Notes under the pieces: model-generated
The model's database searches: none
The model's input: only the letters and a program-made list of their open reading frames with translations
What the model was told of the DNA's origin: nothing
Position numbers and translations under genes: made by a program
DNA from: an uncultured virus (IMG/VR IMGVR_UViG_3300022929_002303)
Lineage: Duplodnaviria > Heunggongvirae > Uroviricota > Caudoviricetes
Reading direction: 5' to 3' (one strand)
DNA length: 64,000 bases
IMG/VR virus record: IMGVR_UViG_3300022929_002303
Shown here: in pieces, positions 9,115 to 59,961 of the stretch
How positions within the stretch are numbered: the stretch's first letter is position 1
How the letters are laid out: every line of letters begins with the position of its first letter

Positions 9115-9741
9115 ATGAAAAGTTTAAAACATTACATTGCAGAGTCAGTCCACACTTATGATTGCACAATCAAACTTGCTGGTGACTGTAGTAAAAATTT
9201 CTTAGAGTTATTTAAACATAACTTAAATAAGTTTGAGCCTAAATCAATTAAAGGGCCAACTTCAACTCCTATTATGAAATCACCATATGGTTTTCCTAAT
9301 TTATCAAACGAACCAGTACACATCTTTAAGTGTGAGTTTGCATATCCCGTAACAGAACCAATGGTACAACAATTAGCACAATTGTTAGGTCACAATATTA
9401 ATTACGTAAGAATGGTCAATACAGCATTTGATGATAGCATCGATAAAGAACTTGTCGGCTACGAAAATGAAATGAAAGACACACCTCTCTTACAAAATGA
9501 AGAAATGAATGACAATGGAAAAGAAGCCAGTGAAGAATATGGTGATAAGTACTTAGACAGCATTCATAAACATGCAGAACATAAAAACGTAGGTAAAGTA
9601 GGTTTGCCTGCTGATCAAAAGAACACTAAAGATGCTTTTGATCCTTGGAAGCCATGGTCAGATGATTCAATTAAAGGTCAAAAGAGTCCGATGACTGACG
9701 TTAAAAGAGGACCCAAGCCTGAAACATCAGCAGGGTACTAA
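9115..9741 (+). CDS. Putative head/internal protein with a capsid-targeting-like leader
   Basis: Starts MKSLKHYIAE|S, resembling T4 internal-protein leaders. Confidence 0.6.
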   Translation: MKSLKHYIAESVHTYDCTIKLAGDCSKNFLELFKHNLNKFEPKSIKGPTSTPIMKSPYGFPNLSNEPVHIFKCEFAYPVTEPMVQQLAQLLGHNINYVRMVNTAFDDSIDKELVGYENEMKDTPLLQNEEMNDNGKEASEEYGDKYLDSIHKHAEHKNVGKVGLPADQKNTKDAFDPWKPWSDDSIKGQKSPMTDVKRGPKPETSAGY

Positions 9742-9751
9742 GGAAGACATT

Positions 9752-28182: not shown

Positions 28183-29019
28183 ATGGACCATTATCAAACA
28201 TTAGGTGTATCACCTCAAGCCGATCAAAAGGAAATTAAAAGAGCCTATCGAAAACTTGCAGGTAAACATCACCCTGATAAAGGCGGAGATGCTGAAAAAT
28301 TTAAAGAATTACAAAAAGCATATGATACTCTAAGTGACCCACAGAAACGAGCAGAGTATGATAATCCTAATCCATTCACACAATTTCAGCAAGGAGGCAA
28401 TCCGTTTGGTGCAGATAGTCCGTTTGGTGATATCTTTGGTGATATTTTTGGTCAACGTCCTAGAGGAACTAGGCGTCCGCAACCTCAACCAATGTATAGA
28501 ACACAGTTAAATGTTACTTTACGTCAATCATACACAGGTGATATACAAACACTAGAATTAAATACTCCACAAGGTAAAAAAGTCGTGCAAGTTACTGTGC
28601 CACAAGGTGTACAGACCGGGCAACAGACACGTTATGATAATGTAGTTCAAAACGGAACATCTTTAATTATTGATTTTCATGTAATGCAAGATTCATGGTT
28701 TGAAAGACACGGAAACAATTTGTTATGTACACATAACATTTCAGTATTAGATTTAATTGTGGGAACACATTTTAATTTTACTACGATATCTGGAAAGGTC
28801 TTAAAAGTTACAGTAAAACCCAACACACAACCAGGTACACAAATTAAATTAGCAGGACATGGAATGCCAATTGCTGATCGAAGAGGTCCTAATTACACTT
28901 CTGGAAACAACGGTGACCAAATTATATTGCTTAATGGTATTATACCAGATACAATAGAGCAAGGTGTCATAGACTCAATTAAAAAATATAAAGATATCCA
29001 AGACTTAAAGCAAAACTAA
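28183..29019 (+). CDS. dnaJ: DnaJ/CbpA-type co-chaperone (class II, no Zn finger)
   Basis: J-domain with HPD, G/F-rich region and DnaJ C-terminal domain ('G.GMP...GD'). Confidence 0.92.
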
Positions 29020-29044
29020 ATAATATTATACAGAGGAAAAACAT

Positions 29045-31327
29045 TTGAACACATCACCAGAAATTGAAAATATTATCTCTAGGGCAATCGAAACTGCAAA
29101 GTCCTATAATCATCAGTATGTTACTATTGAGCATTTGCTTCACGCATTAGTAACACATCAACCGTTTAAAAAAGTATTAAATCAATTTAATGTTGATACT
29201 GATTTAATGATTGGTGAAATAGAAGCATACTTGAATGGATTACATGCTATCGAATCTAAAGACCCTGAGTGTGTTCCTAAGAAAACTAATTCACTAGAAC
29301 GTGTAATGAATAGAGGTGTTACACAAGTTCTATTTACAGGTCGTAGACAAGTCACTACTATGGATCTGTATCTATCGATTGCAACTGAAGGAAACACCCA
29401 TGCACATTATTTCTTATTAAAGTATGGTGTAAACAAAACTCAGTTTATTGAATTTTGGCAAAAGAATTATAGACATCAGGATAGTCAAAACATCAGTCAA
29501 GACCAAGCAGATGATATTTTAGAAGAATACACAACTAATTTAACTAAATTGGCTAGAGACGATAAACTAGAACCTGTCATAGGACGTGTGTCTGAAATTG
29601 ATGACATTATTAATGTTCTAGCAAAACGTTTTAAAGCAAACGTATTAATGGTAGGTGATCCGGGTGTAGGTAAAACAGCAATTGCAGAAGGTATTGCACA
29701 AGCAGTTGTTAACAAAGAAGTACCCGAGTTCTTAGACGGACATGAAGTCTATTCATTAGAGATTGGTAACTTACTTGCTGGATCAAAATATCGCGGTGAG
29801 TTTGAAGAAAAAGTTAAAGAAGTCATTATGGCTTTAGAAGTTAAAAAGAATTGTATCTTATTCATTGACGAAGCCCACACTATGGGAGGCGCTGGATCAA
29901 CATCGAATGGCTCAGTTGATTTTGCAAACATGATTAAGCCTGCTATTACTAAAGGAACTCTCAAAGTAATCGCATCTACTACATGGGAAGAATACTATGA
30001 ATCGTTTGAAAAAGACAGAGCCCTCATGCGTAGATTCTATCGTGTTTCAATTGATGAACCTTCACATGATACTACAATTAGAATTTTACGTGGTTTATCC
30101 GATAGATTAAATGACTTCCACGATGTCAACATTACAGAAGATGCAATCGAAGCCGCAGTTGAAATGGCTGACAGATACATACACGAAAGAAAGAATCCAG
30201 ATAAGTCTATTGACTTACTTGATGCCGCTTGTGCAAAGCAACGTGTAGCAGAAAACAAAGGTGTTGATATCACTAAGACATTGATTTTTGATCAAGTAGA
30301 GAAGTTCACAGGCGTTCCTGCTGACAAACTTAAAGGTGATAATGTAGATCGTATTACTAACTTAGACGTTAATGTTAAAAGTAAGTTGTATGGTCAAGAT
30401 GATGTAGTTGATAATGTAATCGAAAGAGTTTATGTATCGTTTGCAGGAATCGGCAACGAAACTAAACCTATCGCAAGTTTCTTATTTTTAGGACCAACAG
30501 GCACGGGAAAAACAGAATTGGCTAAACTGCTGTCTAGTAACTTAGATATGCCACTGCTCAAATACGATATGTCCGAGTATTCTGAGAAACACAGTGTAAG
30601 CAGTTTGATAGGACCTCCCCCGGGTTATGTAGGTTTTAGTGATTCACAAGTACAAGGCGGACGTTTGATATCAGACTTAAGTAAACAACCTCATTCAATC
30701 ATGTTGTTTGATGAAGTTGAGAAAGCACACCCTGATATCTTTAATATTTTCTTACAGATGTTAGACGAAGGTACGATCACTGGGTCTAATGGTAAGCAAG
30801 TATCATGTAAGAACTGTTTAATCATTCTCACATCTAACTTAGGTAGTGCAGACGGAGAACGTTCAAACATCGGATTCGGTGATACGGACAAAGTAGGCGA
30901 AGATGAAAAAGCAATGAAAAACTTCTTTAAGCCAGAGTTTAGAAATAGACTTGACATGGTTTGTAAGTTTGGTAAACTTGATAAACTATCTATTAAAAAG
31001 ATTGTTGTTAAATTTGTTGCTGACCTACAAAAAGCACTGCTTGATAAACATAATATCACTCTTAACTTTAGTGAAGATGCAGTTGATTACTTAGCAGACG
31101 TAGGTTATGATAGCAAGTTGGGAGCAAGACCATTAGCAAGAAAAATTGATGAACTTGTAAGAGTCCCATTGAGTAAAAAGATTTTATTTGAGAAAATCAA
31201 AGATGCTAATGTCATGTGTGTTATTGATCCAGACACTGGAGAGATTGATTTTGCTTCAACGAAAAAACAGGTTGCTCAAGTAGGTGACGATGGTATCATT
31301 GAAGTAGAAGATTCAGACAACATATAA
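29045..31327 (+). CDS. clpA: ClpA-type AAA+ chaperone / protease ATPase subunit
   Basis: Clp N domain, two AAA modules (GDPGVGKT/FIDE; GPTGTGKT/FDEVEKAH), GYVG pore loop, IGF ClpP-docking loop, no ClpB middle domain. TTG start with SD GAGGA. Confidence 0.9.
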   Translation: MNTSPEIENIISRAIETAKSYNHQYVTIEHLLHALVTHQPFKKVLNQFNVDTDLMIGEIEAYLNGLHAIESKDPECVPKKTNSLERVMNRGVTQVLFTGRRQVTTMDLYLSIATEGNTHAHYFLLKYGVNKTQFIEFWQKNYRHQDSQNISQDQADDILEEYTTNLTKLARDDKLEPVIGRVSEIDDIINVLAKRFKANVLMVGDPGVGKTAIAEGIAQAVVNKEVPEFLDGHEVYSLEIGNLLAGSKYRGEFEEKVKEVIMALEVKKNCILFIDEAHTMGGAGSTSNGSVDFANMIKPAITKGTLKVIASTTWEEYYESFEKDRALMRRFYRVSIDEPSHDTTIRILRGLSDRLNDFHDVNITEDAIEAAVEMADRYIHERKNPDKSIDLLDAACAKQRVAENKGVDITKTLIFDQVEKFTGVPADKLKGDNVDRITNLDVNVKSKLYGQDDVVDNVIERVYVSFAGIGNETKPIASFLFLGPTGTGKTELAKLLSSNLDMPLLKYDMSEYSEKHSVSSLIGPPPGYVGFSDSQVQGGRLISDLSKQPHSIMLFDEVEKAHPDIFNIFLQMLDEGTITGSNGKQVSCKNCLIILTSNLGSADGERSNIGFGDTDKVGEDEKAMKNFFKPEFRNRLDMVCKFGKLDKLSIKKIVVKFVADLQKALLDKHNITLNFSEDAVDYLADVGYDSKLGARPLARKIDELVRVPLSKKILFEKIKDANVMCVIDPDTGEIDFASTKKQVAQVGDDGIIEVEDSDNI

Positions 31328-31918: not shown

Positions 31919-34075
31919 ATGGCAAATATTGTTATTATGCCAGGTGGATTTCACCCATTTCATGCAGGGCATGCCGCACTTTACAACTCTATAAAAGAGA
32001 AGTATGGTAAAGGCTCTGACATCTATGTGGCCGCTAGTAACAATCAAAAAGAACGACCCTTCCCATTTGAAATTAAAGAAAAATTAGCACAACTTTCAGG
32101 TGTACAACCAGGTGAGTTTGTGCAAGTTAAATCTCCGTTTGTACCAACAGAAATCACAAACAAGTATGATCCAGACAAAGACACGATTGTTTTTGTACGA
32201 AGTGAAAAAGATAAAAATGAATACCCAAAGCCCGGGGCAGTTAAGAAAGACGGATCACCGGGATACTTTCAACATATAGATACAGCAAAAAGAGGTGCAC
32301 AACCTTTTAGTAAAGTAGGCTATATGGATTACTTACCAGTTAAAGAATTTGCAGGTATTACTAGTGCTACACAAATCAGAGATACGTGGCCTAGTCTTAA
32401 TGATGATCAACGTGAAGAATTTGTAACACACATTTATCCTAATATAAAAGGCAACGACAAACTAATTAAGAATGTAGTTAAGTTATTAAGTAAAGGAATG
32501 TCCTTAAATGAAGGACTAGCATATATTGATAAAGATGGTAACAGAGTTGATTATACAAGACCTGACTTACCCACAGACATTGAAAATTTAGTCATTGATT
32601 GGTTTAATGACAGAGACAAATACACTAAGGCAACTTTACAATCTAAAGGATATAAAGTAGACGTTGATGATAAGTTCAACAACATTGATATTACAGACAA
32701 AAGAGGTAGAAAATATACTGTGTCTACAGACGATGCAATGTCTAAACTTATACAACAAGCATATGCAGAACCAATGACTGAAGACAAGAACGATACATTA
32801 CTTGATACAAAACGTGCAAGAGCAATACTTCAACTTTATACAAGAACAAACGGGTTTGATTTAAGAAAAATCATATCAAGCCGTAAACGTGGCGGCGGCA
32901 CTAACGAAAGAATAATGACAGTAATGCTTAGACCGGACTCTAAGACTTTCAGTAGAGACGATATAGATAATCTTTCCGATGAACTTCAAAGAAGATTTAG
33001 TGTTACAGTTCCTAGAATGACTATTACAGGTAACGGTAGTTATCTTAATCTAAATCCTGTTGTAGTTACAAAAGTAAATGAAGCATTTGTTGACCCAGAT
33101 CAATCAAAGCAATATTGGAACCACGATGCACAAAAAGTAGGCGTCGGTGGACAAATAGAGTTTCCACTTACTGACACACCAAACTTAAATGGCAGAAGAC
33201 AAGGCTTCAATGAAGGTGAAGAAAGAAGTGATATCGAAACTGCCGCTTATGAATGGTTGCTAGATTATAAAAGTAAAAATCCTGAAGCAGACTATGAAAA
33301 ACTGTATTCAGTATTAAAAAATGTTAGCCACGATGATCTTGGTACACAAGAATTAGATTATTTTATAGGAGAACCATTAGGCTTGAACATGGACAACAAG
33401 AATTTAATTGTTGATGCTGTTCTTGCTCAAATGACAGAAGGCGTGCGTAGATACAGATACGAAGAAAGCATAGAAAAGATTCGTAACATGATTAAAGAGT
33501 CAAGTGACGAACAGAAATCTAAGTCCACAGATTTACATCGCAAACTGTTTGAACTTATGGAAGAAGAAAAAAACAACGTTGTTAAACTCCGAGGTTTTGG
33601 TAGAGAACAAGATAAAAAAGTACCTGATTTAAACATAGTTAGAAAAGAAAAAGAAAAAGAACAACAAAGAAATCAAGGCGAGTACGATAAGAAAAGACAA
33701 CAGCAACTTGCATACTTAAGAAAGATACAAGAAGTCTTATTTGAATTGCATGAAGAATTTGCACAGATGGAACAGTTAGGTCTTTTACCTATCGAAATGA
33801 AACAAAACTTTGAAAACGTAAAAGAACTAATTAACTTTGTAGAGAACTATAGTGCTGATGATTTCCCCTTCACTGATGATGACGGGAACTTACTTGAATC
33901 ATTGCATGTGAAGACTCTGCAACTTAAAGAATATTTTGGTGGTTGGAGAGACAGACAAGCACCTAGAACATTAAGAAACGATAAGCCAAAACTATCCCCA
34001 TTAACAAACGTAAATAATGCATTTTGGAACACGATTGATTTGTCCGAAACCGCTGATTATATCGAAGAAAAATAA
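31919..34075 (+). CDS. HxGH nucleotidyltransferase (cytidylyltransferase-like) domain fused to a modular C-terminal region
   Basis: 'PGGFHPFHAGH' and 'SATQIR' (HIGH/KMSKS-type NTase) within the first ~200 aa. Confidence 0.8.
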   Translation: MANIVIMPGGFHPFHAGHAALYNSIKEKYGKGSDIYVAASNNQKERPFPFEIKEKLAQLSGVQPGEFVQVKSPFVPTEITNKYDPDKDTIVFVRSEKDKNEYPKPGAVKKDGSPGYFQHIDTAKRGAQPFSKVGYMDYLPVKEFAGITSATQIRDTWPSLNDDQREEFVTHIYPNIKGNDKLIKNVVKLLSKGMSLNEGLAYIDKDGNRVDYTRPDLPTDIENLVIDWFNDRDKYTKATLQSKGYKVDVDDKFNNIDITDKRGRKYTVSTDDAMSKLIQQAYAEPMTEDKNDTLLDTKRARAILQLYTRTNGFDLRKIISSRKRGGGTNERIMTVMLRPDSKTFSRDDIDNLSDELQRRFSVTVPRMTITGNGSYLNLNPVVVTKVNEAFVDPDQSKQYWNHDAQKVGVGGQIEFPLTDTPNLNGRRQGFNEGEERSDIETAAYEWLLDYKSKNPEADYEKLYSVLKNVSHDDLGTQELDYFIGEPLGLNMDNKNLIVDAVLAQMTEGVRRYRYEESIEKIRNMIKESSDEQKSKSTDLHRKLFELMEEEKNNVVKLRGFGREQDKKVPDLNIVRKEKEKEQQRNQGEYDKKRQQQLAYLRKIQEVLFELHEEFAQMEQLGLLPIEMKQNFENVKELINFVENYSADDFPFTDDDGNLLESLHVKTLQLKEYFGGWRDRQAPRTLRNDKPKLSPLTNVNNAFWNTIDLSETADYIEEK

Positions 34076-49995: not shown

Positions 49996-51639
49996 ATGTC
50001 TAAAGGTCACATGATAATCATGGGTGGGTTTATCGAACTGCATGACAATATGTTTGAACAAGCCGATGATCTTACAGAATATTGGTGGCCCAGTCTTAAA
50101 CGAAGTGCAGGTAGTCATCGCATTGCAACTGTACTTAGAGAAGAAGGTTATGATGTAGAAGTACTTGATTTTTGGCCTGCTTGGTCTCGTTTACAATTAA
50201 TACAATTTTTTCAAACACATGTAAGAGAAGATACATTGGCAATTGGACTTTCAGTAATGTTTCCGTTCGGAAACATAGCCCGCAAGGGTGTCGGCGCTAA
50301 AAAGAAAATCCTAGAAATGCTTCAAACGATAAAATTTTTAAAAGAACTATATCCACATGTTAAATTTGTAGGAGGATCGCAAAATTTAGTATCGTTGACA
50401 GATTGGGATTTAGATTATTATGTAACTGGGTATGCAGAACTTGCAATTAGTGAACTGCTTAAATATTTTAAACGTGAATTTAATACTTTAAAAATAACAG
50501 AACGTAAACTAGATCATAAAAAAATAAATGTTATAGATTCTTTGCATGATTATCCAGCATATCCTATGCCTACTGCTCATATAAAGTATGAAGAACGAGA
50601 TTATATAAAACCCACCGAAGTATTGTCTTTAGAACTTTCTCGAGGTTGTAAATTTGCTTGTAAGTTTTGTGCGTTTAGTTTATTGGGAGTAAGGGGAGAT
50701 TATTCTCGGTGTAAGGATAGCCTTAGAGAAGAATTGTTAGATAATTATAACAAATGGGGAGTTACAAATTATAATTGCACTGATGAAACAATCAATGATA
50801 AACCTGAAAAATTAGCCAAATATGCTGAAGTAATTAGAAGTTTACCGTTCCAACCCCATATGGGAGGATTTATGAGAGCGGACTTGTTAGTAGCCAAACC
50901 TAGTACATGGCAAGATTTATATGATATGGGTTTACGATCACACTATTATGGTTTAGAATCTTTCAATCATGAGGCGGCTAAGTATGTAGGTAAAGGCATG
51001 AACCCAGATAAACTAAAAAGTGGGTTACTTGAAGTACAAAAATGGTTTAAAGACAAAGAAGCAGGGAGAGGAGATTATAATGTCCATACATCAATAATTT
51101 TAGGATTACCGGGCGAGACAAAAGAGTCATTCCTTGAAGGTGCAGACTGGTTAAAGAATAACTTTGGTGGTCATTCATATGGGATATCTGTTTTGTATAT
51201 GGGAGATTCTACTATGGCTAACTTTCTTTCGCATCCTTCAGAGTTTGAGGTTACATGGAGAGAAGGAGATGTATTTAGACAATTATCATTAGAAGACCTA
51301 AAAGAATTAGATAAAGCAGATCCGATAAAAGATCCTGAAATTAGAACAGAAATATTTGAAAGAAATCAAGTTAAGTGGGAACATGATACTATGAACATTT
51401 GGGACGCATATAAAACATTTGACGAAATGATGGCTGATCCTAATTCATTAAAAAATCATGTCAGTGGACCCGGTCCTTTTTCTTATCACAGATTTCTTAC
51501 AACAGGTAAATATACAATGCAAGATATTTACGATAATACTTACGGAGAAAACGGTTTTGAACAAATAACTGATAGTGATATAAATAGTCATAGAGAATTT
51601 CTTAATGATTATATTAATAAAAAATTAGGCAAAGAGTGA
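49996..51639 (+). CDS. B12-binding-domain radical SAM enzyme
   Basis: 'IA.VLR..GY.V.V.D' N-terminal domain; 'E.SRGCKFACKFC'; 'DET.N'; 'G.ES'; 'I.GLPGET'. Confidence 0.88.
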   Translation: MSKGHMIIMGGFIELHDNMFEQADDLTEYWWPSLKRSAGSHRIATVLREEGYDVEVLDFWPAWSRLQLIQFFQTHVREDTLAIGLSVMFPFGNIARKGVGAKKKILEMLQTIKFLKELYPHVKFVGGSQNLVSLTDWDLDYYVTGYAELAISELLKYFKREFNTLKITERKLDHKKINVIDSLHDYPAYPMPTAHIKYEERDYIKPTEVLSLELSRGCKFACKFCAFSLLGVRGDYSRCKDSLREELLDNYNKWGVTNYNCTDETINDKPEKLAKYAEVIRSLPFQPHMGGFMRADLLVAKPSTWQDLYDMGLRSHYYGLESFNHEAAKYVGKGMNPDKLKSGLLEVQKWFKDKEAGRGDYNVHTSIILGLPGETKESFLEGADWLKNNFGGHSYGISVLYMGDSTMANFLSHPSEFEVTWREGDVFRQLSLEDLKELDKADPIKDPEIRTEIFERNQVKWEHDTMNIWDAYKTFDEMMADPNSLKNHVSGPGPFSYHRFLTTGKYTMQDIYDNTYGENGFEQITDSDINSHREFLNDYINKKLGKE

Positions 51640-51645
51640 TAAATA
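51638..51645 (+). promoter_or_regulatory. Late promoter GATAAATA
   Basis: 5-nt spacer to ATG 51651. Confidence 0.7.
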
Positions 51646-51650
51646 TTAAT

Positions 51651-52910
51651 ATGGACAAGTATAAAAAGACAGCAGGATTAAACTATTTGAGTGAAAACTC
51701 ATATAAGGGAGACGGTTCTCCTGGCATGGTAATGGGTATTGCTAGTGATGCTCGTAGTGATACTAACACATATGAAGGTAAAAAGCCTACGACTAACAGT
51801 AAACACAGTACTGAAAGAGAACTAAAGAAATATGATCCAGCACATGGTCATACAAAACCAGAAGGGGGAAATCCCCAAGTATGTCCTAGTTGTAAGGGAG
51901 AAGGTTGTACATCATGCGGAAACACAGGAGAAGTCATCAGCAAAAAACGCAATGACCCTAAAGTCGATGAATCATTAGAAGATATTAAAAGATTATCTGG
52001 ACTAACAGAGTCTGGTTTTACAGGGGTTGAGGAAATTGATTTATTAAATGACCCAAATGGTGATCGCACACAGAAAGCAATATTAAGGCATCAATTAATG
52101 ACAGATTATAATATTACTTTTTTACCTATACCTGGTGATATTGTTGATCATCCTGAGTTAGGCAAAGTAAAAGTTTTAAAAATTATAGGTCTTGATACTT
52201 ATGGTGGTCCAGCAGAATATGAAATAGAGAATAGAAACGGTAAATCTTTTCCTATAACTTTTGATGAGTTGACAGATATGATTGGCTTCGGAGAAATAAG
52301 TGATGTGCCACAATCAGAAATATCAGAAGATATTAAAAGATTATCTGGCTTATCAGAAGCATTTGCTTGGGACGAGATTGACGAAGCAAAACGAAAGGCA
52401 AGACATGATGATGACGATGATGAAGAAGAAGATGAAAAGCCAGAAGATCCTGAAAAAGATAAAGTCCCGCATATTTTAATGCAACTAAGAAAAGCCCAAG
52501 ACGTAGACGGCGATCACCCAATTAAGTTTTTAGACGGTTCAGAAGTTATTTTACCATTAAAAGATATCAATTTGTTTACAGAAATGTACATGAATGTCAA
52601 GCCACAAGACAGAGAAAGATTACAACAAGTGGCTATTATGAGTAAAGATAAGTTTGATAAACTATTGACGTTCTTCACACCGAAACACGGAAAATTAGAA
52701 AAGAGTATCTATGAAGATGAAGAAGCAGGAGATATGATTACAGAAGAACAGTTTGACGAAGCCGCAGGCAAAAAAGATGCTTGTTATCACAAAGTCAAAA
52801 GCAGATATAAAGTATGGCCTAGTGCATACGCATCTGGTGCTTTAGTTAAGTGTCGTAAAGTAGGTGCATCCAATTGGGGCACTGGCGGAAAGAAAAAGAA
52901 GAAAAAATAA
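51651..52910 (+). CDS. Modular putative internal polyprotein
   Basis: Start re-called to MDKYKKTAGL; CxxC.G.GC..C finger; EDIKRLSGL x2; C-terminal 'DACYHKVKSRYKVWPSAYASGALVKCRK' module. Confidence 0.7.
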   Translation: MDKYKKTAGLNYLSENSYKGDGSPGMVMGIASDARSDTNTYEGKKPTTNSKHSTERELKKYDPAHGHTKPEGGNPQVCPSCKGEGCTSCGNTGEVISKKRNDPKVDESLEDIKRLSGLTESGFTGVEEIDLLNDPNGDRTQKAILRHQLMTDYNITFLPIPGDIVDHPELGKVKVLKIIGLDTYGGPAEYEIENRNGKSFPITFDELTDMIGFGEISDVPQSEISEDIKRLSGLSEAFAWDEIDEAKRKARHDDDDDEEEDEKPEDPEKDKVPHILMQLRKAQDVDGDHPIKFLDGSEVILPLKDINLFTEMYMNVKPQDRERLQQVAIMSKDKFDKLLTFFTPKHGKLEKSIYEDEEAGDMITEEQFDEAAGKKDACYHKVKSRYKVWPSAYASGALVKCRKVGASNWGTGGKKKKKK

Positions 52911-53224
52911 TGCGTATTAATGAAATCTTAACTGAGTCAATTATCCAAGAAGATTTACGAGCCTGGTTCGGCAAAGGCAAAGACGGTGGTGCCGGAGGCG
53001 GTGGTTGGGATAGATACAATACCAAAGGCGAACGTGTAGGTAAATGCGGTGATGGTAAAGGCAAAGGCAAACCTAAGTGTTTATCTAAAAGTAAAGCCGC
53101 AAGTCTACGTAACTCTGGTGGCAAGAAAGCAATTGGAAACGCAGTCAAAAGAAAGAAAAAGAATGACCCTAATAAGAATCGCAGGGGTAAAGCAAAGAAC
53201 GTAAGCAACAAGCCGAAGAAGTAA
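52910..53224 (+). CDS. Small, highly basic leader-bearing protein
   Basis: Start re-called to MRINEILTE|S (TAATG coupling); 'EDLR.WF.....GGW.......CG......PKC....KA'. Confidence 0.75.
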   Translation: MRINEILTESIIQEDLRAWFGKGKDGGAGGGGWDRYNTKGERVGKCGDGKGKGKPKCLSKSKAASLRNSGGKKAIGNAVKRKKKNDPNKNRRGKAKNVSNKPKK

Positions 53225-53225
53225 G

Positions 53226-53420
53226 ATGAGAGCATCTGAAGTTGTCAAGCCATATCATCTTTATGCCGCAACTGTGTTTGTACAGCAACCGGGATACACA
53301 GGCAACATGGACTTCACTGTCTCTGCTCAAACACATTTTGAAGCAAGACAATTAATGAAAAAGATGTATAATATTCCTGACTATAGAATAGGAAGTTTAC
53401 GTTTAGTTAAACGAGGTTAA
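53226..53420 (+). CDS. Small hypothetical protein
   Basis: 64 aa, starts MRASEVVK. Confidence 0.6.
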   Translation: MRASEVVKPYHLYAATVFVQQPGYTGNMDFTVSAQTHFEARQLMKKMYNIPDYRIGSLRLVKRG

Positions 53421-54160
53421 GCAGGTTTACTGTAAACAAAATACTTTCTGTCATTAGCATCTTGTTTGAACGTCTCTAGTTCTAATCCAAACTCTTTAGC
53501 AAAGTTGTGAGCAACTTCAAAACTCCACTCAAATACTTCTACCCAAGGCCCGTTCTTATGTTGAATACCTGGATTGACTCTAAAGAACATCTTACCACCT
53601 TTAGCAAGTAACTTATTACAGTTTGCTAATCTCACTCTAATATCTTCAATACTATTAAAGTTAATAGATCCTAATGCTATAATTGCATCAAAGTGTTCAT
53701 CAACATTTGCATATTCTAAAACATCAACTTGATAGTCTGACATATTGTTATAAGGATCAATGCCGATCAAGTTTGGTATACGTTCTTTAAATTGATTGTA
53801 TCCGCAACCTACATCTAATACTGCTTTAGGATTAAGTTTTTTAACTTCATCAACTAACTGCCAGCCTGTATAACTATATATTTCTGTCTGTGGCTTCCAA
53901 ATTTCACCGAAAAACATACTAGAGTATTTGATGTCTAGTTGATCAACAACAGATTCGATAGTGCCTTCCCATCTAATTTTTGCATCTAAGTCCATTGTTG
54001 CTAAAATATCTTCTTTGAACTTATCAAACTTGACTGGAGTAATAGCCATTTCTTCAAACGTAGTTTTCTCATTGAGATTAGTTCTGATGTGATCGTATTT
54101 AGGTAAGTTCAGTGCCTCATCTAAATTTTCCATAACCAAGTTAAAAATTTTGCTATTCAT
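53417..54160 (-). CDS. Class I SAM-dependent methyltransferase
   Basis: 'VLDVGCG', 'GIDP', 'FD.IIALGS.NF', 'LL..GG..F'; SD AAGGA. Confidence 0.85.
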   Translation of the reverse strand: MNSKIFNLVMENLDEALNLPKYDHIRTNLNEKTTFEEMAITPVKFDKFKEDILATMDLDAKIRWEGTIESVVDQLDIKYSSMFFGEIWKPQTEIYSYTGWQLVDEVKKLNPKAVLDVGCGYNQFKERIPNLIGIDPYNNMSDYQVDVLEYANVDEHFDAIIALGSINFNSIEDIRVRLANCNKLLAKGGKMFFRVNPGIQHKNGPWVEVFEWSFEVAHNFAKEFGLELETFKQDANDRKYFVYSKPA

Positions 54161-54249: not shown

Positions 54250-54294
54250 CTAGTAGTGATTATTTTAATTACTACAACCCTTAAGGAGAATAAT

Positions 54295-54993
54295 ATGAAA
54301 TCAAACAAAGAATTTGTTGCTAGTATTGTCGAAGGCAATCAAGCATTATTCAAAGCAAGTCAACTTAACGTTGCAGAGTATTTCGACAACATGCCTGACG
54401 AGGATGCGTTGGTAGAACACTTTGTTGGACGTATGGTTAACGAAAGAATGAACATGGTAGAGATTAGTAATAATATTGCATCTATGCCTGCTGATGCAGA
54501 TCCTGTTGAACTTCAAAACTTAACTAAACAAGCAAACGATGAAGCAATTCATTTTCGTTTAGTAAAAGAAGTTATTGAACATATCAAAGGTGAAGAGATT
54601 GATGTTGCAGAAGCAATCGCCGCTGAAGAAGCAAAGCCTACTGCTAAAGGTGCAAGCCTTTTAGAAAAGTATGGTGCTGATTCTGATCCAGCCGCTCTTG
54701 CCGCATATCAATTAGTTGCAGAAGGTCGTGCAGAAGCCGTTTGGAACACAATGGCAGAAGTAATCGATGATGAGTTTATCTCAACTCGTTATGCTAAAAT
54801 TGCTAAAGACGAAGGTTTCCACAGCACAATCGGCGCAATGAAGTTAGAAACTTTAGTCGGTGATGCTGAAACTCAAGCACGTATCGAAGAACTTGTTTCA
54901 AACATGCGTAAAGACTTGTATGAAATTTCATGCAAAAACACTAGCCATAATGCAGAAGGACAAAAATTAGTATCAGAAGCATACGGTTGGTAA
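54295..54993 (+). CDS. Ferritin-like di-iron protein
   Basis: Two E...DExxH ligand sets (NERMN...DEAIH; AEGRA...DEGFH). Start re-called to ATG 54295 (SD AAGGAG). Confidence 0.8.
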   Translation: MKSNKEFVASIVEGNQALFKASQLNVAEYFDNMPDEDALVEHFVGRMVNERMNMVEISNNIASMPADADPVELQNLTKQANDEAIHFRLVKEVIEHIKGEEIDVAEAIAAEEAKPTAKGASLLEKYGADSDPAALAAYQLVAEGRAEAVWNTMAEVIDDEFISTRYAKIAKDEGFHSTIGAMKLETLVGDAETQARIEELVSNMRKDLYEISCKNTSHNAEGQKLVSEAYGW

Positions 54994-55006
54994 GCAGAAG
55001 TATGTA

Positions 55007-55558
55007 GTGAATATCGGTCTATCACAGAGGATATTACATTATAACAACGTGGCGTATGATTGCTTAGAACACGGTTGGTACAGCCTGTTAAGTGATCATA
55101 CGTTTTTTTATATCCCTAACATAATAGAACAAGACTATAAAAAATTAGTTAGAGATTTAGACTTAGTAATCTTAACAGGTGGAGACGCAAGTCCTCAAAG
55201 AATACTAGTCGAAACAAAAGTATTAACGCAATGTTATATACAAGACAAACCTGTATTAGGAGTTTGTCACGGTGCATTTCTTATTAACGAATTAGAGCAA
55301 GGAGTTAATAGCACAATAGAAAATCATTACGATACTACTCACGGGATTATTTTAGAAGGTGAGAAGTACGAAGTAAATAGTTTTCACATGAATCAGTTAA
55401 AGGAAGTTGGCGCAGATTTAAATGCTATTGCACACGCCGATGATGGAAGTATTGAAGCATTTAGACACAAAAACAGAAAACTTTGGGGACTAGTTTGGCA
55501 TCCTGAAAGAATGCAAGATCCTGTTTTACCTGACGACCTTAGGAGTTTTATACTATGA
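55007..55558 (+). CDS. Class I glutamine amidotransferase / peptidase C26-like (gamma-glutamyl hydrolase)
   Basis: 'LILTGG.D', nucleophile 'GVCHG', 'VNSFH', 'WHPE'. Confidence 0.88.
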   Translation: MNIGLSQRILHYNNVAYDCLEHGWYSLLSDHTFFYIPNIIEQDYKKLVRDLDLVILTGGDASPQRILVETKVLTQCYIQDKPVLGVCHGAFLINELEQGVNSTIENHYDTTHGIILEGEKYEVNSFHMNQLKEVGADLNAIAHADDGSIEAFRHKNRKLWGLVWHPERMQDPVLPDDLRSFIL

Positions 55559-56331
55559 GAGTATTAATATTTGGTCTACCCGGAAGTGGTAAGACATATC
55601 TAGCAAAACGACTAGTTGAATACTTAGGTGACAATGTTGCCTGGTTTAATGCTGATCAGGTTCGCAGTGATGTAAATGACTGGGACTTTTCAGAAGAAGG
55701 TAGATTAAGACAAAAACAAAGAATAGATAATCTTTGTAAAGAAGCCGAAGACAATGGTAAAATTGCAATCGCAGATTTTATTTGTCCTTTTAAAAAAGCA
55801 AGAAAAGAATTTAGTGCTGATTATGAAATCTTTGTCGATACAATTGAAGAAGGTATATTTGAAGACACAAATCAAATATTTGAAAGACCAATTGCTACAG
55901 ACTATAATATACATGAAAAACGAGGTGATATAGATGCAAAAATTATTGCATATGAAATAGGACAAAGATTTATATGGGATAATACAGCACCTACAACTCA
56001 AATGTTAGGTAGATGGCAACCATGGCATGGAGGACATCAAGCATTATTTGATAGAGCAATAGCAAAACACGGACAAGTTTTTTTAATGGTCAGAGATATG
56101 CCCATAGATATTAATAATCCTTTTCCGGCGTATGAAGTAGTAGAAAATTTACAACAAGTTTTATACAAACATGCAGGAAAAGTAAAAATACAAGTTGTGC
56201 CTAACTTATTAAACATCACATATGGTAGAGATGTAGGATACAAAATCGAACAAGAAACGTTTGAACGTGAAGTACATGATATAAGTGCAACTAAAATACG
56301 TGAACAAATGAGACAAGACGGAGTATTATAA
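55555..56331 (+). CDS. Adenylylsulfate (APS) kinase-like domain fused to an HxGH nucleotidyltransferase
   Basis: 'GLPGSGKT.LA...NAD.VR....DFS..GR...DFICP...R...FE.P' followed by 'LGRWQPWHGGH...I.YGRDVGY...ISATKIR'. Confidence 0.8.
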   Translation: MRVLIFGLPGSGKTYLAKRLVEYLGDNVAWFNADQVRSDVNDWDFSEEGRLRQKQRIDNLCKEAEDNGKIAIADFICPFKKARKEFSADYEIFVDTIEEGIFEDTNQIFERPIATDYNIHEKRGDIDAKIIAYEIGQRFIWDNTAPTTQMLGRWQPWHGGHQALFDRAIAKHGQVFLMVRDMPIDINNPFPAYEVVENLQQVLYKHAGKVKIQVVPNLLNITYGRDVGYKIEQETFEREVHDISATKIREQMRQDGVL

Positions 56332-57002
56332 TGAAAGGAATGGTAAACGTTTTTGGAACGTTAGACATAAAAGATCGTTACAACATGACGATTATCAAAT
56401 TAGAAGCCAATGAACTTAAGACTTATAAACCAATTGGTATGGCGTATGTTATGTTAAGAAATGCTAGTTTTGAAAGCAATAACATTACATTAACAAATAA
56501 AAATGCATGTGTCAATACAGGAGATAATTTTACAATATCTTGCGGAGAACAAGGCTCTGCATGTATCGTTGAGTTTCCAGGACTTAGTTTATTAGAAAGT
56601 CGCATTTTTATACAAGAATGTTTAGACATAGGTAACTTAAGTTATATGGACGGCGGCACAAATACTACAGCAATCAATCCAGGTAGATTAGGTGACCCTG
56701 TTATTAACTATGTGCATTTTCCTGCAGGTATGTATCAGACATTACACACGCACCCTTCTCACAGAGTTGGACTAGTCATCAAAGGCAATGGCAAGATAGA
56801 ATTAGACAACAAAGAATTTTATGATGTCAACGAAGGCGAAGTATTTTTCATGCGTAGAAATTGTTTACATAACTTTATCTGTGACAAAGACGAAGATGTA
56901 ATCGTGTTTGTATGGGCGCCAGACAGTGGTACAGGCCCTACAGATGAAATTAACCCATTAAAAATTAGAACATATGTTGGACAGCAAAGATATCACAAGT
57001 AA
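56331..57002 (+). CDS. Cupin-domain protein
   Basis: 'QTLHTHPSHR.G.V..G.G...GE.F......H.F' metal-binding cupin motifs. Confidence 0.8.
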   Translation: MKGMVNVFGTLDIKDRYNMTIIKLEANELKTYKPIGMAYVMLRNASFESNNITLTNKNACVNTGDNFTISCGEQGSACIVEFPGLSLLESRIFIQECLDIGNLSYMDGGTNTTAINPGRLGDPVINYVHFPAGMYQTLHTHPSHRVGLVIKGNGKIELDNKEFYDVNEGEVFFMRRNCLHNFICDKDEDVIVFVWAPDSGTGPTDEINPLKIRTYVGQQRYHK

Positions 57003-57639
57003 AAAAATCTTAATCATTACAGGTCCACAAGGGTCTGGTAATCATTTATTCAGTAGACTGTTTAGTTTACATGATGACGTAGGCGGCTGGGAAGAATTAA
57101 ATGAAAAGTATTGGGTACCCAGTGATGAAGAAACATTTGCTGAGTATTGGGTTTATCCTGAACGTCTAAAAGATTTTGATTTTAGTAAACATAATTACTG
57201 GGTAGCAAACGTCAGTTGTCCATTCATGTACGATGGCACACGTTATACACCTAAAATAAAAGAGTTTGCAGACGAATGTATTAAACTAGGCATTGATGTT
57301 ACAATAGGTATAATCGTAAGAGATAAAAACATAAACGTAGAACAACAGAAAAGAGTTAGAAAAGAAGTAACTCTGCCGATAGCACTTAACTATTACTATA
57401 CAAATCTATTAGATTATAATGTGCATTTCTTAGACCATGAAGCATTCTTTTTACATAAGGCTTATTATCTAAGATATGTAAGTAAAATTTTAGACTTTCC
57501 AGTTGCATATGATAATCCAGATATAATGAAATTTATTTGGGAAGATGCAAATCATAAGTATGTCAAATATGTAGACGAACATTGGCTTGACAAAGAGGTG
57601 TGGGACGGTATTAGAACTAAGGAAGAAAGAAACGTATGA
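56974..57639 (+). CDS. Sulfotransferase-like P-loop protein
   Basis: 'LIITGPQGSGNH...LFS.H..V' resembles the 5'-PAPS loop; 'IIVRD' resembles the 3'-phosphate motif. Confidence 0.6.
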   Translation: MLDSKDITSKKILIITGPQGSGNHLFSRLFSLHDDVGGWEELNEKYWVPSDEETFAEYWVYPERLKDFDFSKHNYWVANVSCPFMYDGTRYTPKIKEFADECIKLGIDVTIGIIVRDKNINVEQQKRVRKEVTLPIALNYYYTNLLDYNVHFLDHEAFFLHKAYYLRYVSKILDFPVAYDNPDIMKFIWEDANHKYVKYVDEHWLDKEVWDGIRTKEERNV

Positions 57640-58256
57640 AATATATTTTTGTAGCAGGGGCACCCGGATCTAAATGGAGTAGTGTATGTAAAAACATCTA
57701 CTACAGTGATTCTATAGATCAAAGTGATGCTAGTGAAGACAGAGAGTATTGGCATGATGCTAGTGGGCAACTAGACTTAATGCATATTGGTGCATACTTT
57801 GATCCAGGCATGGAGTTCGGAGATTTCTTTTTGTTTCTTAACAAGTATACAAAAGAAGAATGTGAAGCAGAGTTTGATAGACCTTTTTCAGGCGAAGGTG
57901 TGCGTATTATTAAGAGTCATGTGTTCGCACATCACATAGACTTTCTAAAAGATAACTGGCCAGACTGCCCTATTGTTTTAGTTCACAGAGATAATGATGC
58001 ATGTTTGGGTTGGTGGGTAAGATGTGGACACTTTGATATTACATACCCTCTCTATCATAAATATTATGTGAATTTAAGAGAAATGAGTAAGATTGTAGAC
58101 GATCAAAACAGAGATATCGTCAATGCATGGAAAAGATATGGTGGCATTAGCCCGAAAGATAATTTAGATTTAGCAGATATATTAAAAATCAATAGGCCAC
58201 CAGAAGAATATCAGCAAGACTACAATCTAAAAGATATTGGAATAAAAGTAATATGA
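57636..58256 (+). CDS. Sulfotransferase-like P-loop protein
   Basis: 'IFVAGAPGSKWS', 'IIKSH', 'P...IVLVHRD'. Confidence 0.6.
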   Translation: MKYIFVAGAPGSKWSSVCKNIYYSDSIDQSDASEDREYWHDASGQLDLMHIGAYFDPGMEFGDFFLFLNKYTKEECEAEFDRPFSGEGVRIIKSHVFAHHIDFLKDNWPDCPIVLVHRDNDACLGWWVRCGHFDITYPLYHKYYVNLREMSKIVDDQNRDIVNAWKRYGGISPKDNLDLADILKINRPPEEYQQDYNLKDIGIKVI

Positions 58257-58924
58257 CACAAAGCAGTTGGGAACAATTAAAACAAAGAAGCAATTATCAC
58301 TTTGACCCTGATTTGATGCATCCTCTCTATGATACAGTCGATAGAGTAGGCGTAATTGATTTGAGTAGCATCACACAAGAAGAATTAGACAAAGTTGTAG
58401 CAGAGTCTAAAGAAGCAACATGGCGTACGAGAGGCAACCCTAAAAAAGAATCTAAAGTCAGAGGAGAAGATGAATTTAAGACTGAAGACTATGACTTAGA
58501 AAAGACAGGTTATGGTATTGACTATGTTGTCAGTAATCTTAACTGGGAAGTGCCACCAAACATACAAGCAATTGCAGATCAGTTTGGTTTAGATGATATG
58601 ATGACTAGAATTCATGTACAAAATCCAGGTCAAGTATGGAACTTGCACATGGACAAATTAGAAAAATGGAACTTTGAAGACCCAAGTACTGTAGAAAGAT
58701 ACATGATTCAATTATCTGATTGGAGACCCGGTCAATGGTTTAGTTATGGTAACTATACTTTTGAGCATTGGAAAGCAGGAGATGTGACTACATTTAGATG
58801 GCAAGATGTTCCTCACTCAACTGCAAACGCAGGTCATCACCCTCGTATTACTTTACAAGTTACTGGAGTTCGTACTGATAAATCTAAAGAGTTTATACGA
58901 TTGTTACGAAAAGGAGAGTTATAA
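58253..58924 (+). CDS. 2-oxoglutarate/Fe(II)-dependent oxygenase-like protein
   Basis: 'Q.PGQ...LHMD...W.AGDV..F....PHSTANAG...R..LQ.TG' (HxD...H...R). Confidence 0.8.
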   Translation: MTQSSWEQLKQRSNYHFDPDLMHPLYDTVDRVGVIDLSSITQEELDKVVAESKEATWRTRGNPKKESKVRGEDEFKTEDYDLEKTGYGIDYVVSNLNWEVPPNIQAIADQFGLDDMMTRIHVQNPGQVWNLHMDKLEKWNFEDPSTVERYMIQLSDWRPGQWFSYGNYTFEHWKAGDVTTFRWQDVPHSTANAGHHPRITLQVTGVRTDKSKEFIRLLRKGEL

Positions 58925-59185
58925 CTCTCTTTTGTTGACATCCTTGCAGATTTCTTTTGCAAGATCACTACCAGTTGTCACAAACAAAAACGGAAAGAAC
59001 GCATGTATGATAACAGCAAGGCCTGTTAATAGCATACTTACACCATAGTACAATGCACAACTTAAATGTTCCGTGTATGTTTCACCCAAAGAGTGTGGAT
59101 GTTCTGTAAATTTGTTTCGGAGTTTATTGAAAAACGTGATTGTTTTGCTCTCCGTATATTTTAATATACTTGCCGGCAATTTCAT
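58919..59185 (-). CDS. Small membrane protein (DUF6356-like)
   Basis: 'F.EHP.S.GETY.EH...A.......G....IHA.FPFLF..T.S'. Confidence 0.7.
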   Translation of the reverse strand: MKLPASILKYTESKTITFFNKLRNKFTEHPHSLGETYTEHLSCALYYGVSMLLTGLAVIIHAFFPFLFVTTGSDLAKEICKDVNKREL

Positions 59186-59663
59186 CTGCTTCTGATTCTA
59201 TAGGAGACCCTGGATAACTTGAATTGGGTGTGATTAAACCTTTTTCTCCTTGTCTGATATGAACAAGTTCATGGAATACTGTTCTAAGAATATCAATTAG
59301 ATTTCTGTTGCCATAGACCCAAATCTCGTCAGAACCAAGTTCGTGTCTACCCGTATGATGACCGTCTTGTGCCTCTTGTGTATCATAACTTAACTTGACT
59401 TTAGGCATATTTTCAATTTTTAAAACATTACCCATCCAATGTGCGGCTTTTGTTACTTCATCCTCAATGTTTAAACCATCATCAAACATTTGATCAGAAG
59501 CAGTTAATTCTTGTCTTGCTTTGTGTGCTTGTTTGGCAGCCTGCTTGGCATTACGATAAATTTTACCTTTTTCGTCTACGTTATATTGATCACTCTTAAT
59601 CTTGGGAAGTCTGTTTTCCAAGTCTTTAAGCGGATCTTCATTGATAAATTGATAGGCTCTCAT
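59124..59663 (-). CDS. Leader-bearing zincin metallopeptidase-like protein
   Basis: Start re-called to MRAYQFINE|D; 'DILRT..HELVH..Q...E.EA...AG'. Confidence 0.75.
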   Translation of the reverse strand: MRAYQFINEDPLKDLENRLPKIKSDQYNVDEKGKIYRNAKQAAKQAHKARQELTASDQMFDDGLNIEDEVTKAAHWMGNVLKIENMPKVKLSYDTQEAQDGHHTGRHELGSDEIWVYGNRNLIDILRTVFHELVHIRQGEKGLITPNSSYPGSPIESEADEIAGKYIKIYGEQNNHVFQ

Positions 59664-59668
59664 ACTAT

Positions 59669-59676
59669 TATTTATC
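59669..59676 (-). promoter_or_regulatory. Late promoter GATAAATA (minus strand)
   Basis: Plus-strand TATTTATC; 5-nt spacer to the ATG at 59663. Confidence 0.7.
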
Positions 59677-59703
59677 AATAATTGCTTTTGGGAAATGTTT
59701 TGC

Positions 59704-59732
59704 TTGACTCTAACCGTATTAAATATTACAAT
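59704..59732 (+). promoter_or_regulatory. Sigma70-type promoter
   Basis: TTGACT, 17 nt, TACAAT; ATG at 59740. Confidence 0.75.
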
Positions 59733-59739
59733 AGAACAC

Positions 59740-59961
59740 ATGATATTACCTGAAGTTGAAAAAGCACTACATATCATTTGGGAACTAGAGTATGAAATGT
59801 TGAATGAAAGAAACTGTGGTTACACGGGTTCAGACATGAAAAAGAAACTCTGGCAGATCAAAATGAGAGTAGACAAAGCAATTGCAAAGGCCCCGGTCTA
59901 TCATGGTGACCCAAACTACGAACAAGAATATCTTGTAGCAAAAATTAAAGGCGAAGTATGA
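59740..59961 (+). CDS. Hypothetical protein
   Basis: Start re-called to MILPEVEK, just after the promoter. Confidence 0.65.
   Translation: MILPEVEKALHIIWELEYEMLNERNCGYTGSDMKKKLWQIKMRVDKAIAKAPVYHGDPNYEQEYLVAKIKGEV

Follow-up and report, generated by a model that had tools for sequence, protein, structure and literature searches.

A candidate minimal PAPS synthase in an uncultured jumbo myovirus and its relatives in phages and marine bacteria

The 64,000-nucleotide stretch of an uncultured tailed virus analysed here (IMG/VR record IMGVR_UViG_3300022929_002303; hereafter, the window) contains an open reading frame (ORF) of 258 aa that joins a predicted adenosine 5'-phosphosulfate (APS) kinase to a 119-aa HxGH nucleotidyltransferase domain. 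Based on the identities of the two domains and on gene context, we propose, at a probability of roughly 0.62, that this fusion is a minimal bifunctional 3'-phosphoadenosine 5'-phosphosulfate (PAPS) synthase, composed of a non-orthologous mini ATP sulfurylase and an APS kinase. The small domain occurs in three settings, namely, fused to or paired with APS kinase, beside PAPS-using sulfotransferases and ahead of APS reductase, and the proposal follows from APS being the one metabolite that these settings share. Any adenylyltransferase of the HxGH type that forms or splits APS is, by definition, an ATP sulfurylase. We also lean, with odds only a little better than even, towards a wider claim, that the 119-aa domain represents a third class of ATP sulfurylase, about one-third the size of Sat, which is also the missing sulfurylase of SAR11, and that phages, SAR11, SAR86 and SAR116 make PAPS without Sat or CysDN.

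An initial annotation, made from the letters of the window, had already suggested a stripped-down enzyme leading from sulfate to PAPS, arguing from motifs shared with Sat-type sulfurylases. That function is still the best-supported reading, now from comparative genomics and context, whereas the motif argument fails. Given that the small domain is fused or adjacent to the kinase, has sulfotransferase neighbours and stands alone upstream of aprMBA in SAR11 genomes without Sat, it is on context that the sulfurylase assignment rests.

Domain architecture of the fusion protein

The ORF call, its translation and the family alignment bear out the 258-aa protein originally described, which starts with ATG and carries RWQPWHGGH (aa 153-161), YGRDVG (aa 223-228) and ISATKIR (aa 243-249). 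A match to the PHROG phrog_10255, labelled "kinase," spans aa 1-252 (E 1.6e-55), and the AlphaFold model of the complete protein has a predicted local distance difference test (pLDDT) score of 89.4 and a predicted template modelling score (pTM) of 0.83. Both halves contain motifs that are invariant in an alignment of 32 family members sharing 55-100% identity.

Pfam, the predicted fold and the residues that bind the substrate all identify the N-terminal half as a trimmed APS kinase, in agreement with the CysC-like kinase recognised at the outset. The Pfam profile APS_kinase (PF01583) matches aa 3-88 above its cut-off (E 2.6e-11; 44.2 bits versus 21.1), the PDB sequences matched are APS kinases, with 2yvu at E 1.6e-8 and the kinase domains of PAPSS1/2 at approximately 1e-4, and the Foldseek matches listed (ranks 1-47) are all APS kinases or proteins containing one (E 5.9e-8 to 3.4e-6). 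The alignment with APS kinases of the PDB holds at the P-loop, xxD..R, DFS..GR and F[IV][CA]P motifs; in the fusion, these regions include GLPGSGKT, N32-A33-D34, in which the second Asp of DGD is kept and the first is replaced by Asn, and D74-F-I-C-P78. R37, F45, R50, R56, D34 and F75..P78 are invariant in the 32 sequences and match APS-binding and catalytic positions of PAPSS2, 2yvu and CysC, the roles of which we take from known APS kinase structures.

The C-terminal domain, by contrast with the initial assignment, is on profile and fold comparisons a shortened nucleotidyltransferase resembling NadM, archaeal nicotinamide mononucleotide (NMN) adenylyltransferase (NMNAT) and phosphopantetheine adenylyltransferase (PPAT), and not a Sat-type enzyme. 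A profile of 26 such domains retrieved 2qjt (1.2e-7), 1f9a (3.7e-6), 2qjo (1.1e-5) and the archaeal PPAT 3do8 (0.021) from the PDB, with no Sat among the 20 PDB sequences matched. Modelled alone, the domain has three predicted strands and four helices (pLDDT 80.1). The structural comparison with Sat on one side and NMNAT or cytidylyltransferases on the other, proposed in the initial annotation, yielded PPAT and NMNAT as the best Foldseek matches, all of them weak (E 1.1e-3 to 2e-2, none at E <= 1e-3), with the PPAT 5o08_C at the top (E 1.1e-3), a query-normalised TM score of 0.72-0.73 to the NMNAT of M. thermautotrophicum and no sulfurylase among the matches listed. The fusion protein has no PF01747 match at E <= 0.01, and alignment with five canonical SAR11 Sat proteins using hhalign covers 38 columns around HxxH only, at a probability of 1.6%. 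Homology of the small domain to Sat was rejected, as neither the PDB profile search, Foldseek nor hhalign lent it support.

The motifs that had suggested Sat belong to a larger assemblage: HxGH and ISxTxxR are motifs of the whole nucleotidyltransferase superfamily. In the present family, GRxQPxHxGH (GRWQPWHGGH in the window) and ISATxIR (ISATKIR) are invariant and align to 2qjt, 1f9a and 2qjo. Position 226, the Asp of "GRD," varies among D, G, S, A and K in the 32 sequences; Y223, G224, R225, V227, G228, Y229 and E232 are invariant. The "HAG" of Sat is replaced by VGY, GRDHAG being present in 5/5 of the SAR11 Sat proteins. Pfam CTP_transf_like matches aa 152-205 below threshold (E 3.7e-3; 17.9 bits versus 21), and PHROGs gives weak "cytidyltransferase" and NMNAT matches to this half.

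With NMNAT and PPAT as the closest relatives, a phosphate ester could be the acceptor instead of sulfate, and the principal alternative is that the kinase is a true APS kinase acting on host APS, while the small transferase adenylylates NMN, in a form of NAD salvage with NadR-like logic, or an unknown phosphate ester. We regard this as unlikely. In its favour, the nearest relatives in sequence and fold are NadM/archaeal NMNAT and PPAT, the weak PHROGs matches agree with it, and a NADAR domain gene (E 6.4e-26) lies upstream of the fusion gene in Xylella phage Sano. However, alignment to NMNATs is limited to the first 60-70 residues (HMMER aligns only query positions 11-79 of the domain profile), the core is shorter by approximately 25 residues, which in NMNATs lie between strand 3 and the SxTxxR motif, and the NCBIfam thresholds for NMNAT are missed (NF002243, 24.6 versus 127 bits; TIGR01527, 20.2 versus 181 bits). 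Moreover, NAD is not an obvious substrate for a fused 3'-kinase of the APS kinase type.

The PPAT structures at the head of the Foldseek matches and the profile match to an archaeal PPAT bring to mind the eukaryotic CoA synthase, in which PPAT is combined with a 3'-kinase and the order of the chemistry, adenylyl transfer followed by 3'-phosphorylation, is the same. That the pair makes another 3'-phospho-ADP-X cofactor, such as coenzyme A (CoA) from 4'-phosphopantetheine, is nonetheless extremely unlikely: the kinase is APS-kinase-like rather than CoaE-like, and the contexts found contain no pantothenate or CoA synthesis genes, with APS reductase and sulfotransferases in their place. Least plausible of the alternatives is that the small domain has no catalytic role and serves the APS kinase in regulation or oligomerisation, as a mirror image of the APS-kinase-like allosteric domain of the fungal ATP sulfurylase. 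In favour of this, the domain, at 119 aa, is very short compared with the approximately 160-170 aa usual for the fold, and part of it models poorly; yet all ATP-site residues of the superfamily are invariant in phage and cellular members, and a separate, kinase-free gene exists next to aprMBA.

Distribution and gene context in viruses and cells

The family is thousands strong and extends over phages, SAR11, SAR86 and SAR116. Among 6163 candidate proteins of 141-452 aa, 5867 match at E <= 1e-3, and a relative is encoded in 266 of 269 viral stretches and 492 of 588 prokaryote-genome stretches selected by pattern matching; chance would not account for such numbers. Full-length copies are present in cultured phages, namely, Stenotrophomonas phage DLP_6 and Sano-like phages of Xylella, Xanthomonas and Stenotrophomonas, annotated as "kinase" or "hypothetical." The cellular set comprises 80 loci, mostly from Pelagibacteraceae (SAR11), SAR86 and SAR116, with some metagenome-assembled genomes (MAGs) of other phyla. 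In 52 of these loci the gene is fused, in 19 (mostly SAR86) kinase and transferase are adjacent ORFs, and in 9 the transferase stands alone; the split pair is also found in SAR11 genomes (L172-L175). The occurrence of the two halves as one gene or as adjacent genes suggests two enzymes of one pathway. Since 27 of the 33 positions invariant in the fused family are unchanged in all 19 stand-alone and split homologues compared, we treat these forms as having the same chemistry.

Other arrangements were also encountered. Forms longer than 452 aa are represented by a single match among 1181 candidates, the metagenomic protein P0121 (456 aa), in which a 200-aa N-terminal extension with a P-loop-like RCGSG motif and no Pfam family precedes kinase and transferase. 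The extension resembles ST1, a small protein of the window (Table 1), only at the P-loop-like motif (BLAST E 0.14), and we do not claim a triple fusion. In three viral loci, a full-length fusion is directly preceded by a paralogue of 154 aa that consists of the kinase only and has a P-loop and AAA_18 and Zeta_toxin-type matches (L007, at 9540-10001, and the corresponding position in L008 and L009). Ralstonia jumbo phages phiRSL1 (AB366653.2, 171139-171486) and RsoM2USA (MG752970.1, 159797-160144) encode the kinase half only, with 43-45% of the query covered.

For the viruses, ORFs within 4 kb of the fusion gene were clustered in 82 loci (80 metagenomic ones, Sano and DLP_6). Most often, the neighbour is a protein of 567 aa that has a clear N-terminal sulfotransferase domain (Sulfotransfer_3, 4e-14), found in 38 loci by BLAST clustering and in 39 by profile search, and a separate viral lineage has a Sulfotransfer_2 neighbour (2.4e-8). 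Overall, a clear sulfotransferase lies within 4 kb in 43/82 loci, and 10 more, including those of the lineage of the window, have weak matches only. Also encoded nearby in many loci are glycosyltransferases, methyltransferases, UDP-galactopyranose mutase, RCC1/fn3 proteins and SAM synthetase. Five long viral records, of which two reach at least 97% completeness, were searched for a canonical sulfurylase, and neither PF01747 above its cut-off (0/5) nor the CysD-type PF01507 (0/5) was found; the same five all have at least a weak Sulfotransfer_3 match, which is above the cut-off in one.

Sulfotransferases accompany the cellular copies as well. Clear examples lie directly upstream of the gene or pair in SAR86 (L146 and L148; Sulfotransfer_3, 2e-42) and beside it in SAR11 (L096; Sulfotransfer_1, 5.6e-21), in locus L105 (2.9e-22), in a gammaproteobacterial MAG (L129, 5e-40) and in SAR116 (L134, 2e-41). 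In eight SAR86 loci (L144, L145, L149, L154, L158, L160, L163 and L167), the split kinase gene is immediately preceded by one for a conserved protein of 367 aa; this protein was considered as a further sulfotransferase and not counted, as neither Pfam nor NCBIfam gives a match and it does not resemble the sulfotransferase of L146. Other fused copies of SAR11 have a surface-glycan setting, amid genes for epimerases, GT2 enzymes, an ABC exporter, NeuB, DegT and CMP-sugar synthetase.

The third setting is found in SAR11, where the transferase occurs without a kinase. In 9/9 stand-alone loci (L150-L153, L156, L157, L161, L165 and L168), a transferase of 125-147 aa is followed on the same strand by an AprM-like protein, AprB, AprA and a TauE sulfite exporter. 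The AprM-like protein is a multi-pass membrane protein of 263 aa with weak similarity to QmoC; in L156 (7977-13127), the genes are spaced by 49 and 63 nt, with an overlap between aprB and aprA. In the sat-aprMBA operons of sulfur oxidisers such as Allochromatium vinosum, we take the position ahead of aprMBA to be occupied by sat; from the order transferase, AprM-like protein, AprB and AprA on one strand, the small gene of SAR11 is therefore in the sat position. Pelagibacter AprBA is assigned to sulfur-oxidiser lineage I in a passage of PMC2211403, most SAR11 lack ATP sulfurylase though AprAB is present according to an excerpt of PMC10356861, and a predicted sat is given only for strain HTCC9565 in the corresponding part of PMC3448164. 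Ten of the 80 genome loci have, no more than 6 kb from the transferase or fusion, an inositol-monophosphatase-family gene that possibly encodes a CysQ-type PAP phosphatase (L151, at 1535-2308, L112, L113, L150, L152, L153, L157, L162, L165 and L168).

The association with APS reductase was examined across 121 SAR11-family genomes that are at least 80% complete, including one (G060) that matched NadD only. The small transferase is present in 71 of these genomes, AprB in 60, Sat in 5 and NadD in 111. AprB-positive genomes carry the transferase in 59 of 60 cases, compared with 12 of 61 AprB-negative ones (Fisher p 4e-21, not corrected for shared ancestry); the only AprB-positive genome without it has aprB at a contig edge. 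Nine of the 12 transferase-only genomes have fused or long forms, and 49 genomes have neither gene. Sat is missing from 57 of the 60 AprB-positive genomes, 56 of which have the small transferase. The Sat proteins of SAR11 are about 340-360 aa long; weak PF01747 matches in SAR11 genomes trace to pantoate-beta-alanine ligase-like ORFs and were discarded as Sat. In 25 of the 59 genomes, the small transferase and aprB are no more than 4 kb apart, and in one genome (G018) the fused form is located 1.7 kb upstream of aprMBA.

The same genomes bear on adenylylation of NMN as the alternative function. The enzyme NadD is already present in 111/121 genomes, 50/121 do without the small transferase, and the latter tracks AprB; the small transferase is not the NAD enzyme of the cell. 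An NMN-specific role would leave unexplained both the stand-alone copy ahead of aprMBA in all nine loci and its presence in 59 of the 60 AprB-positive genomes.

For the fusion as a PAPS synthase, the following mechanism can be envisaged. The C-terminal 119-aa domain, on its NMNAT-like scaffold, would transfer the adenylyl group of ATP to sulfate, yielding APS and pyrophosphate, and the trimmed N-terminal kinase would then phosphorylate the 3'-OH of APS to give PAPS. Fusion of the halves may serve to pull the unfavourable first step forward. In the phage, the PAPS would feed the sulfotransferase-like enzymes encoded alongside, within what may be an island for tailoring sugars and proteins. In SAR11, the stand-alone transferase ahead of aprMBA would catalyse the reverse reaction during sulfite oxidation, converting APS and pyrophosphate to ATP and sulfate. 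Domain identities, folds, conserved catalytic-type residues and gene contexts are observed; that sulfate is the acceptor, which way the flux runs and what is sulfated are what we infer.

Several observations weigh against this proposal. The kinase, at approximately 138 aa, is without most of the lid of the canonical APS kinase domain (approximately 175-200 aa); the Pfam match covers profile positions 5-94 of 152 only, target-normalised TM scores in Foldseek are 0.55-0.77, and the kinase falls under the equivalog and subfamily cut-offs of NCBIfam (for example, TIGR00455, 37.4 versus 138.7 bits). In the small domain, the nearest relatives in sequence and fold are NMNAT and PPAT, not Sat, and the Asp of "GRD" is not conserved. 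The likeliest acceptor-binding stretch, aa ~216-242, is the low-confidence part of both models, with mean pLDDT values over ten-residue blocks of 55-68 in the full-length model and 54-66 in the domain model, the pLDDT of which drops below 50 at domain residues 96-103. Among the viral loci, 29/82 have no sulfotransferase-like gene within 4 kb; the neighbours of the fusion are NADAR and MazG in Sano and a DNA ligase, a 2-oxoglutarate (2OG) oxygenase and a phosphatase in DLP_6, and in the window itself both putative sulfotransferases, ST1 and ST2, are under every curated threshold. In SAR11, 34 of the 59 co-occurrences of AprB and transferase are not adjacent, all three genomes with AprB and Sat keep the small transferase too, contrary to a strict replacement, and co-occurrence in related genomes is non-independent evidence. 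In the four non-adjacent cases that were inspected (L172-L175), the transferase follows the kinase in a split pair, which (L172, 3197-7215, in G118, and similarly in the others) shares its operon with genes for a Rieske ring-hydroxylating oxygenase, an enoyl-CoA hydratase, a CoA-binding protein and two YeeE/YedE-type sulfur-transport proteins.

The fusion gene and its neighbours in the window

The window is part of the genome of a jumbo myovirus, encoding tail sheath, PhoH, ClpB, DnaJ and a family-B polymerase that shares 46-50% identity with its counterparts in Sinorhizobium phage Phosso and Agrobacterium phage Atu_ph07. The fusion gene is one of seven tightly packed genes that form a row on the + strand at 54256-58924 (Table 1). 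Its start and the stop of the upstream ORF share 4 nt (ATGA), and the next ORF begins at its last base, these overlaps with both neighbours placing the gene firmly within the row.

Table 1. Coordinates of the fusion gene, its two domains and the other genes of the row.
Feature	Position	Strand	Basis
Candidate mini PAPS synthase fusion gene	55555..56331	+	ORF call, family alignment, PHROG phrog_10255
Trimmed APS kinase domain (predicted), aa 1-138	55555..55968	+	Pfam, PDB sequence matches, Foldseek
Shortened NadM/archaeal-NMNAT-like HxGH nucleotidyltransferase, proposed mini ATP sulfurylase, aa 140-258	55972..56328	+	Profile, fold
Ferritin-like protein, first gene of the row	54256..54993	+	Weak Pfam Ferritin_2, E 9.9e-3
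Class-I glutamine amidotransferase / gamma-glutamyl hydrolase	55007..55558	+	Pfam Peptidase_C26 7.8e-17, GATase 1.7e-10
Cupin-domain protein, next gene after the fusion	56331..57002	+	Pfam Cupin_2 1.4e-10
ST1, small P-loop-like protein, possibly of sulfotransferase fold	56974..57639	+	Atlas neighbours, lead only
ST2, small sulfotransferase-like protein	57636..58256	+	Sulfotransfer_3 E 1.7e-3, below cut-off
223-aa protein, no family	58253..58924	+	Travels with ST2 and the fusion

The sulfotransferases that the initial annotation placed next to the fusion are only partly borne out. Language-model neighbours of both ST1 and ST2 are viral sulfotransferase clusters, those of ST1 including clusters with Sulfotransfer_1/3/4 at scores of 0.94-0.95, which we treat as a lead only; on the other side, ST2 is sub-threshold and ST1 has no Pfam match even at E <= 1. 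Homologues of ST2 score 1.5e-4 (L128) and 7.2e-5 (G006) against Sulfotransfer_3. ST1 homologues are found close to the fusion in loci L003-L006, L128 and L139, and ST2 co-occurs with it in the same loci and in L046, as do homologues of the 223-aa protein, for which no Pfam, NCBIfam or PHROG match was obtained. No significant similarity was detected between the cupin of the window and the "cysteine dioxygenase" of Sano, or between ST1 and Sano gp33. The ferritin-like and cupin genes are each kept beside the fusion in 4/82 viral loci, and the former may have a role in the pathway.

The gene upstream of the fusion raises, for the lineage of the window only, a further alternative, namely, that this lineage copies the Campylobacter route to O-methyl-phosphoramidate (MeOPN; Cj1417, Cj1415 and Cj1416), the product being a 3'-phospho-nucleoside diphosphoramidate donor rather than PAPS. 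The upstream protein has GxCxG and HPE motifs, its gene is translationally coupled to the fusion gene, its top NCBIfam match is the gamma-glutamyl-CDP-amidate hydrolase NF045546 (E 9.4e-29), ahead by 16 orders of magnitude, and a methyltransferase gene is located nearby, at 53417-54160. We nevertheless consider the phosphoramidate donor very unlikely. The hydrolase reaches 100.9 bits, far under the cut-off of 250 of that model, and adjoins the fusion in only 4/82 viral loci, those of the closest relatives, and 1/80 genome loci; elsewhere, the partners are sulfotransferases and APS reductase. In the related records used for genome-wide checks, the glutamine kinase domains PPDK_N and PEP-utilizers were not found in the nearest related record, G001 (a 79-kb fragment, estimated to be 23% complete), nor was PPDK_N in G130-G132 and G006, all of these records being fragments that are 10-37% complete. 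Parts of a review (PMC6429109) give the outline of the Campylobacter pathway.

Several other genes of the window were noted. A 718-aa protein encoded at 31919-34075 has a second HxGH cytidylyltransferase-like domain at its N terminus (Pfam E 2.7e-4), followed by approximately 620 residues without a family match. At 49996-51639 lies a gene for a B12-binding radical SAM enzyme (547 aa) with weak NCBIfam matches to radical SAM families of the P- and C-methyltransferase type; a gene of this kind is kept near the fusion in 12/82 viral loci. The following ORF (51636-53224) encodes an acidic, low-complexity protein of 424 aa with a terminal poly-Lys tail and is overlapped in another frame by an ORF for a basic, Gly/Lys-rich protein of 116 aa; either may be real. 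On the - strand, at 59124-59777, a 217-aa ORF with an HELVH motif is zinc-metallopeptidase-like and has no family match. Genes for DnaJ (278 aa) and a ClpB-type double-AAA chaperone (760 aa) adjoin at 28183-31327, and the same pair is located near the fusion in L025.

Implications and comparison with known systems

Should the small domain prove to be a sulfurylase, a textbook reaction would gain a third, non-orthologous and very small catalyst, and thousands of sequences annotated as "kinase," "hypothetical" or "cytidyltransferase-like" would be sulfurylases. The sulfur gap of SAR11, in which most genomes have APS reductase without ATP sulfurylase, would become testable with one small protein, and the stand-alone enzyme would complete AMP-dependent sulfite oxidation in bacteria that are among the most abundant in the ocean. 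Many aquatic phages, in turn, would be self-sufficient for activated sulfate, which would imply that molecules of the host or virion are widely sulfated in the course of infection. A PAPS synthase of 258 aa would also be a handy tool for enzymatic supply of PAPS. In a literature search, which did not extend to subscription journals, we found no description of an NMNAT-like ATP sulfurylase, of such a fusion or of a gene ahead of aprMBA in SAR11; cysC is listed among auxiliary genes in papers on viral metagenomes, the fusion going unmentioned in the portion of PMC8066274 concerned.

The closest functional counterparts would be the metazoan PAPSS1/2 (PDB 1x6v and 2ofx), which likewise have an N-terminal APS kinase, homologous to that of the fusion, and a C-terminal adenylyltransferase, and which carry out the same two-step chemistry as proposed here. 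However, these enzymes measure approximately 620 aa and contain a Sat-type sulfurylase with a PUA-like domain, whereas the second domain of the fusion is 119 aa long, is kin to Sat at the superfamily level only and is without any extra domain, and the lid of the kinase is shortened. Sat-type sulfurylases (PF01747) and the small domain both belong to the HxxH superfamily, with HxxH after strand 1 and an SxTxxR-like motif near the C terminus; they differ in that Sat has a PUA-like N-terminal domain, a length of approximately 340 aa or more and a GRDHAG motif that is invariant in the five Sat proteins compared, none of which, including the PF01747 signature and a fixed Asp, is shared by the small domain. 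The best relatives, NadM and archaeal NMNAT (2qjt, 2qjo, 1f9a and 1ej2), have GRxQPxHxGH, NPF and SxTxIR in common with it, but its genomic partners are APS enzymes rather than NAD enzymes.

At the level of gene order, the SAR11 loci correspond to the sat-aprMBA operon, with the difference that the gene in the sat position encodes an NMNAT-like protein of 125-147 aa instead of Sat. The row of the window, in turn, contains all three kinds of genes represented by Cj1415, Cj1416 and Cj1417 of Campylobacter jejuni, namely, a CysC-like 3'-kinase (as we take Cj1415 to be), a nucleotidyltransferase and a gamma-glutamyl hydrolase, which together act on a PAPS-like donor. The resemblance is limited, with no glutamine kinase found in the phage fragments, a sub-cut-off hydrolase and an association restricted to close relatives of the phage; Cj1416, moreover, presumably has a fold different from that of the small domain.

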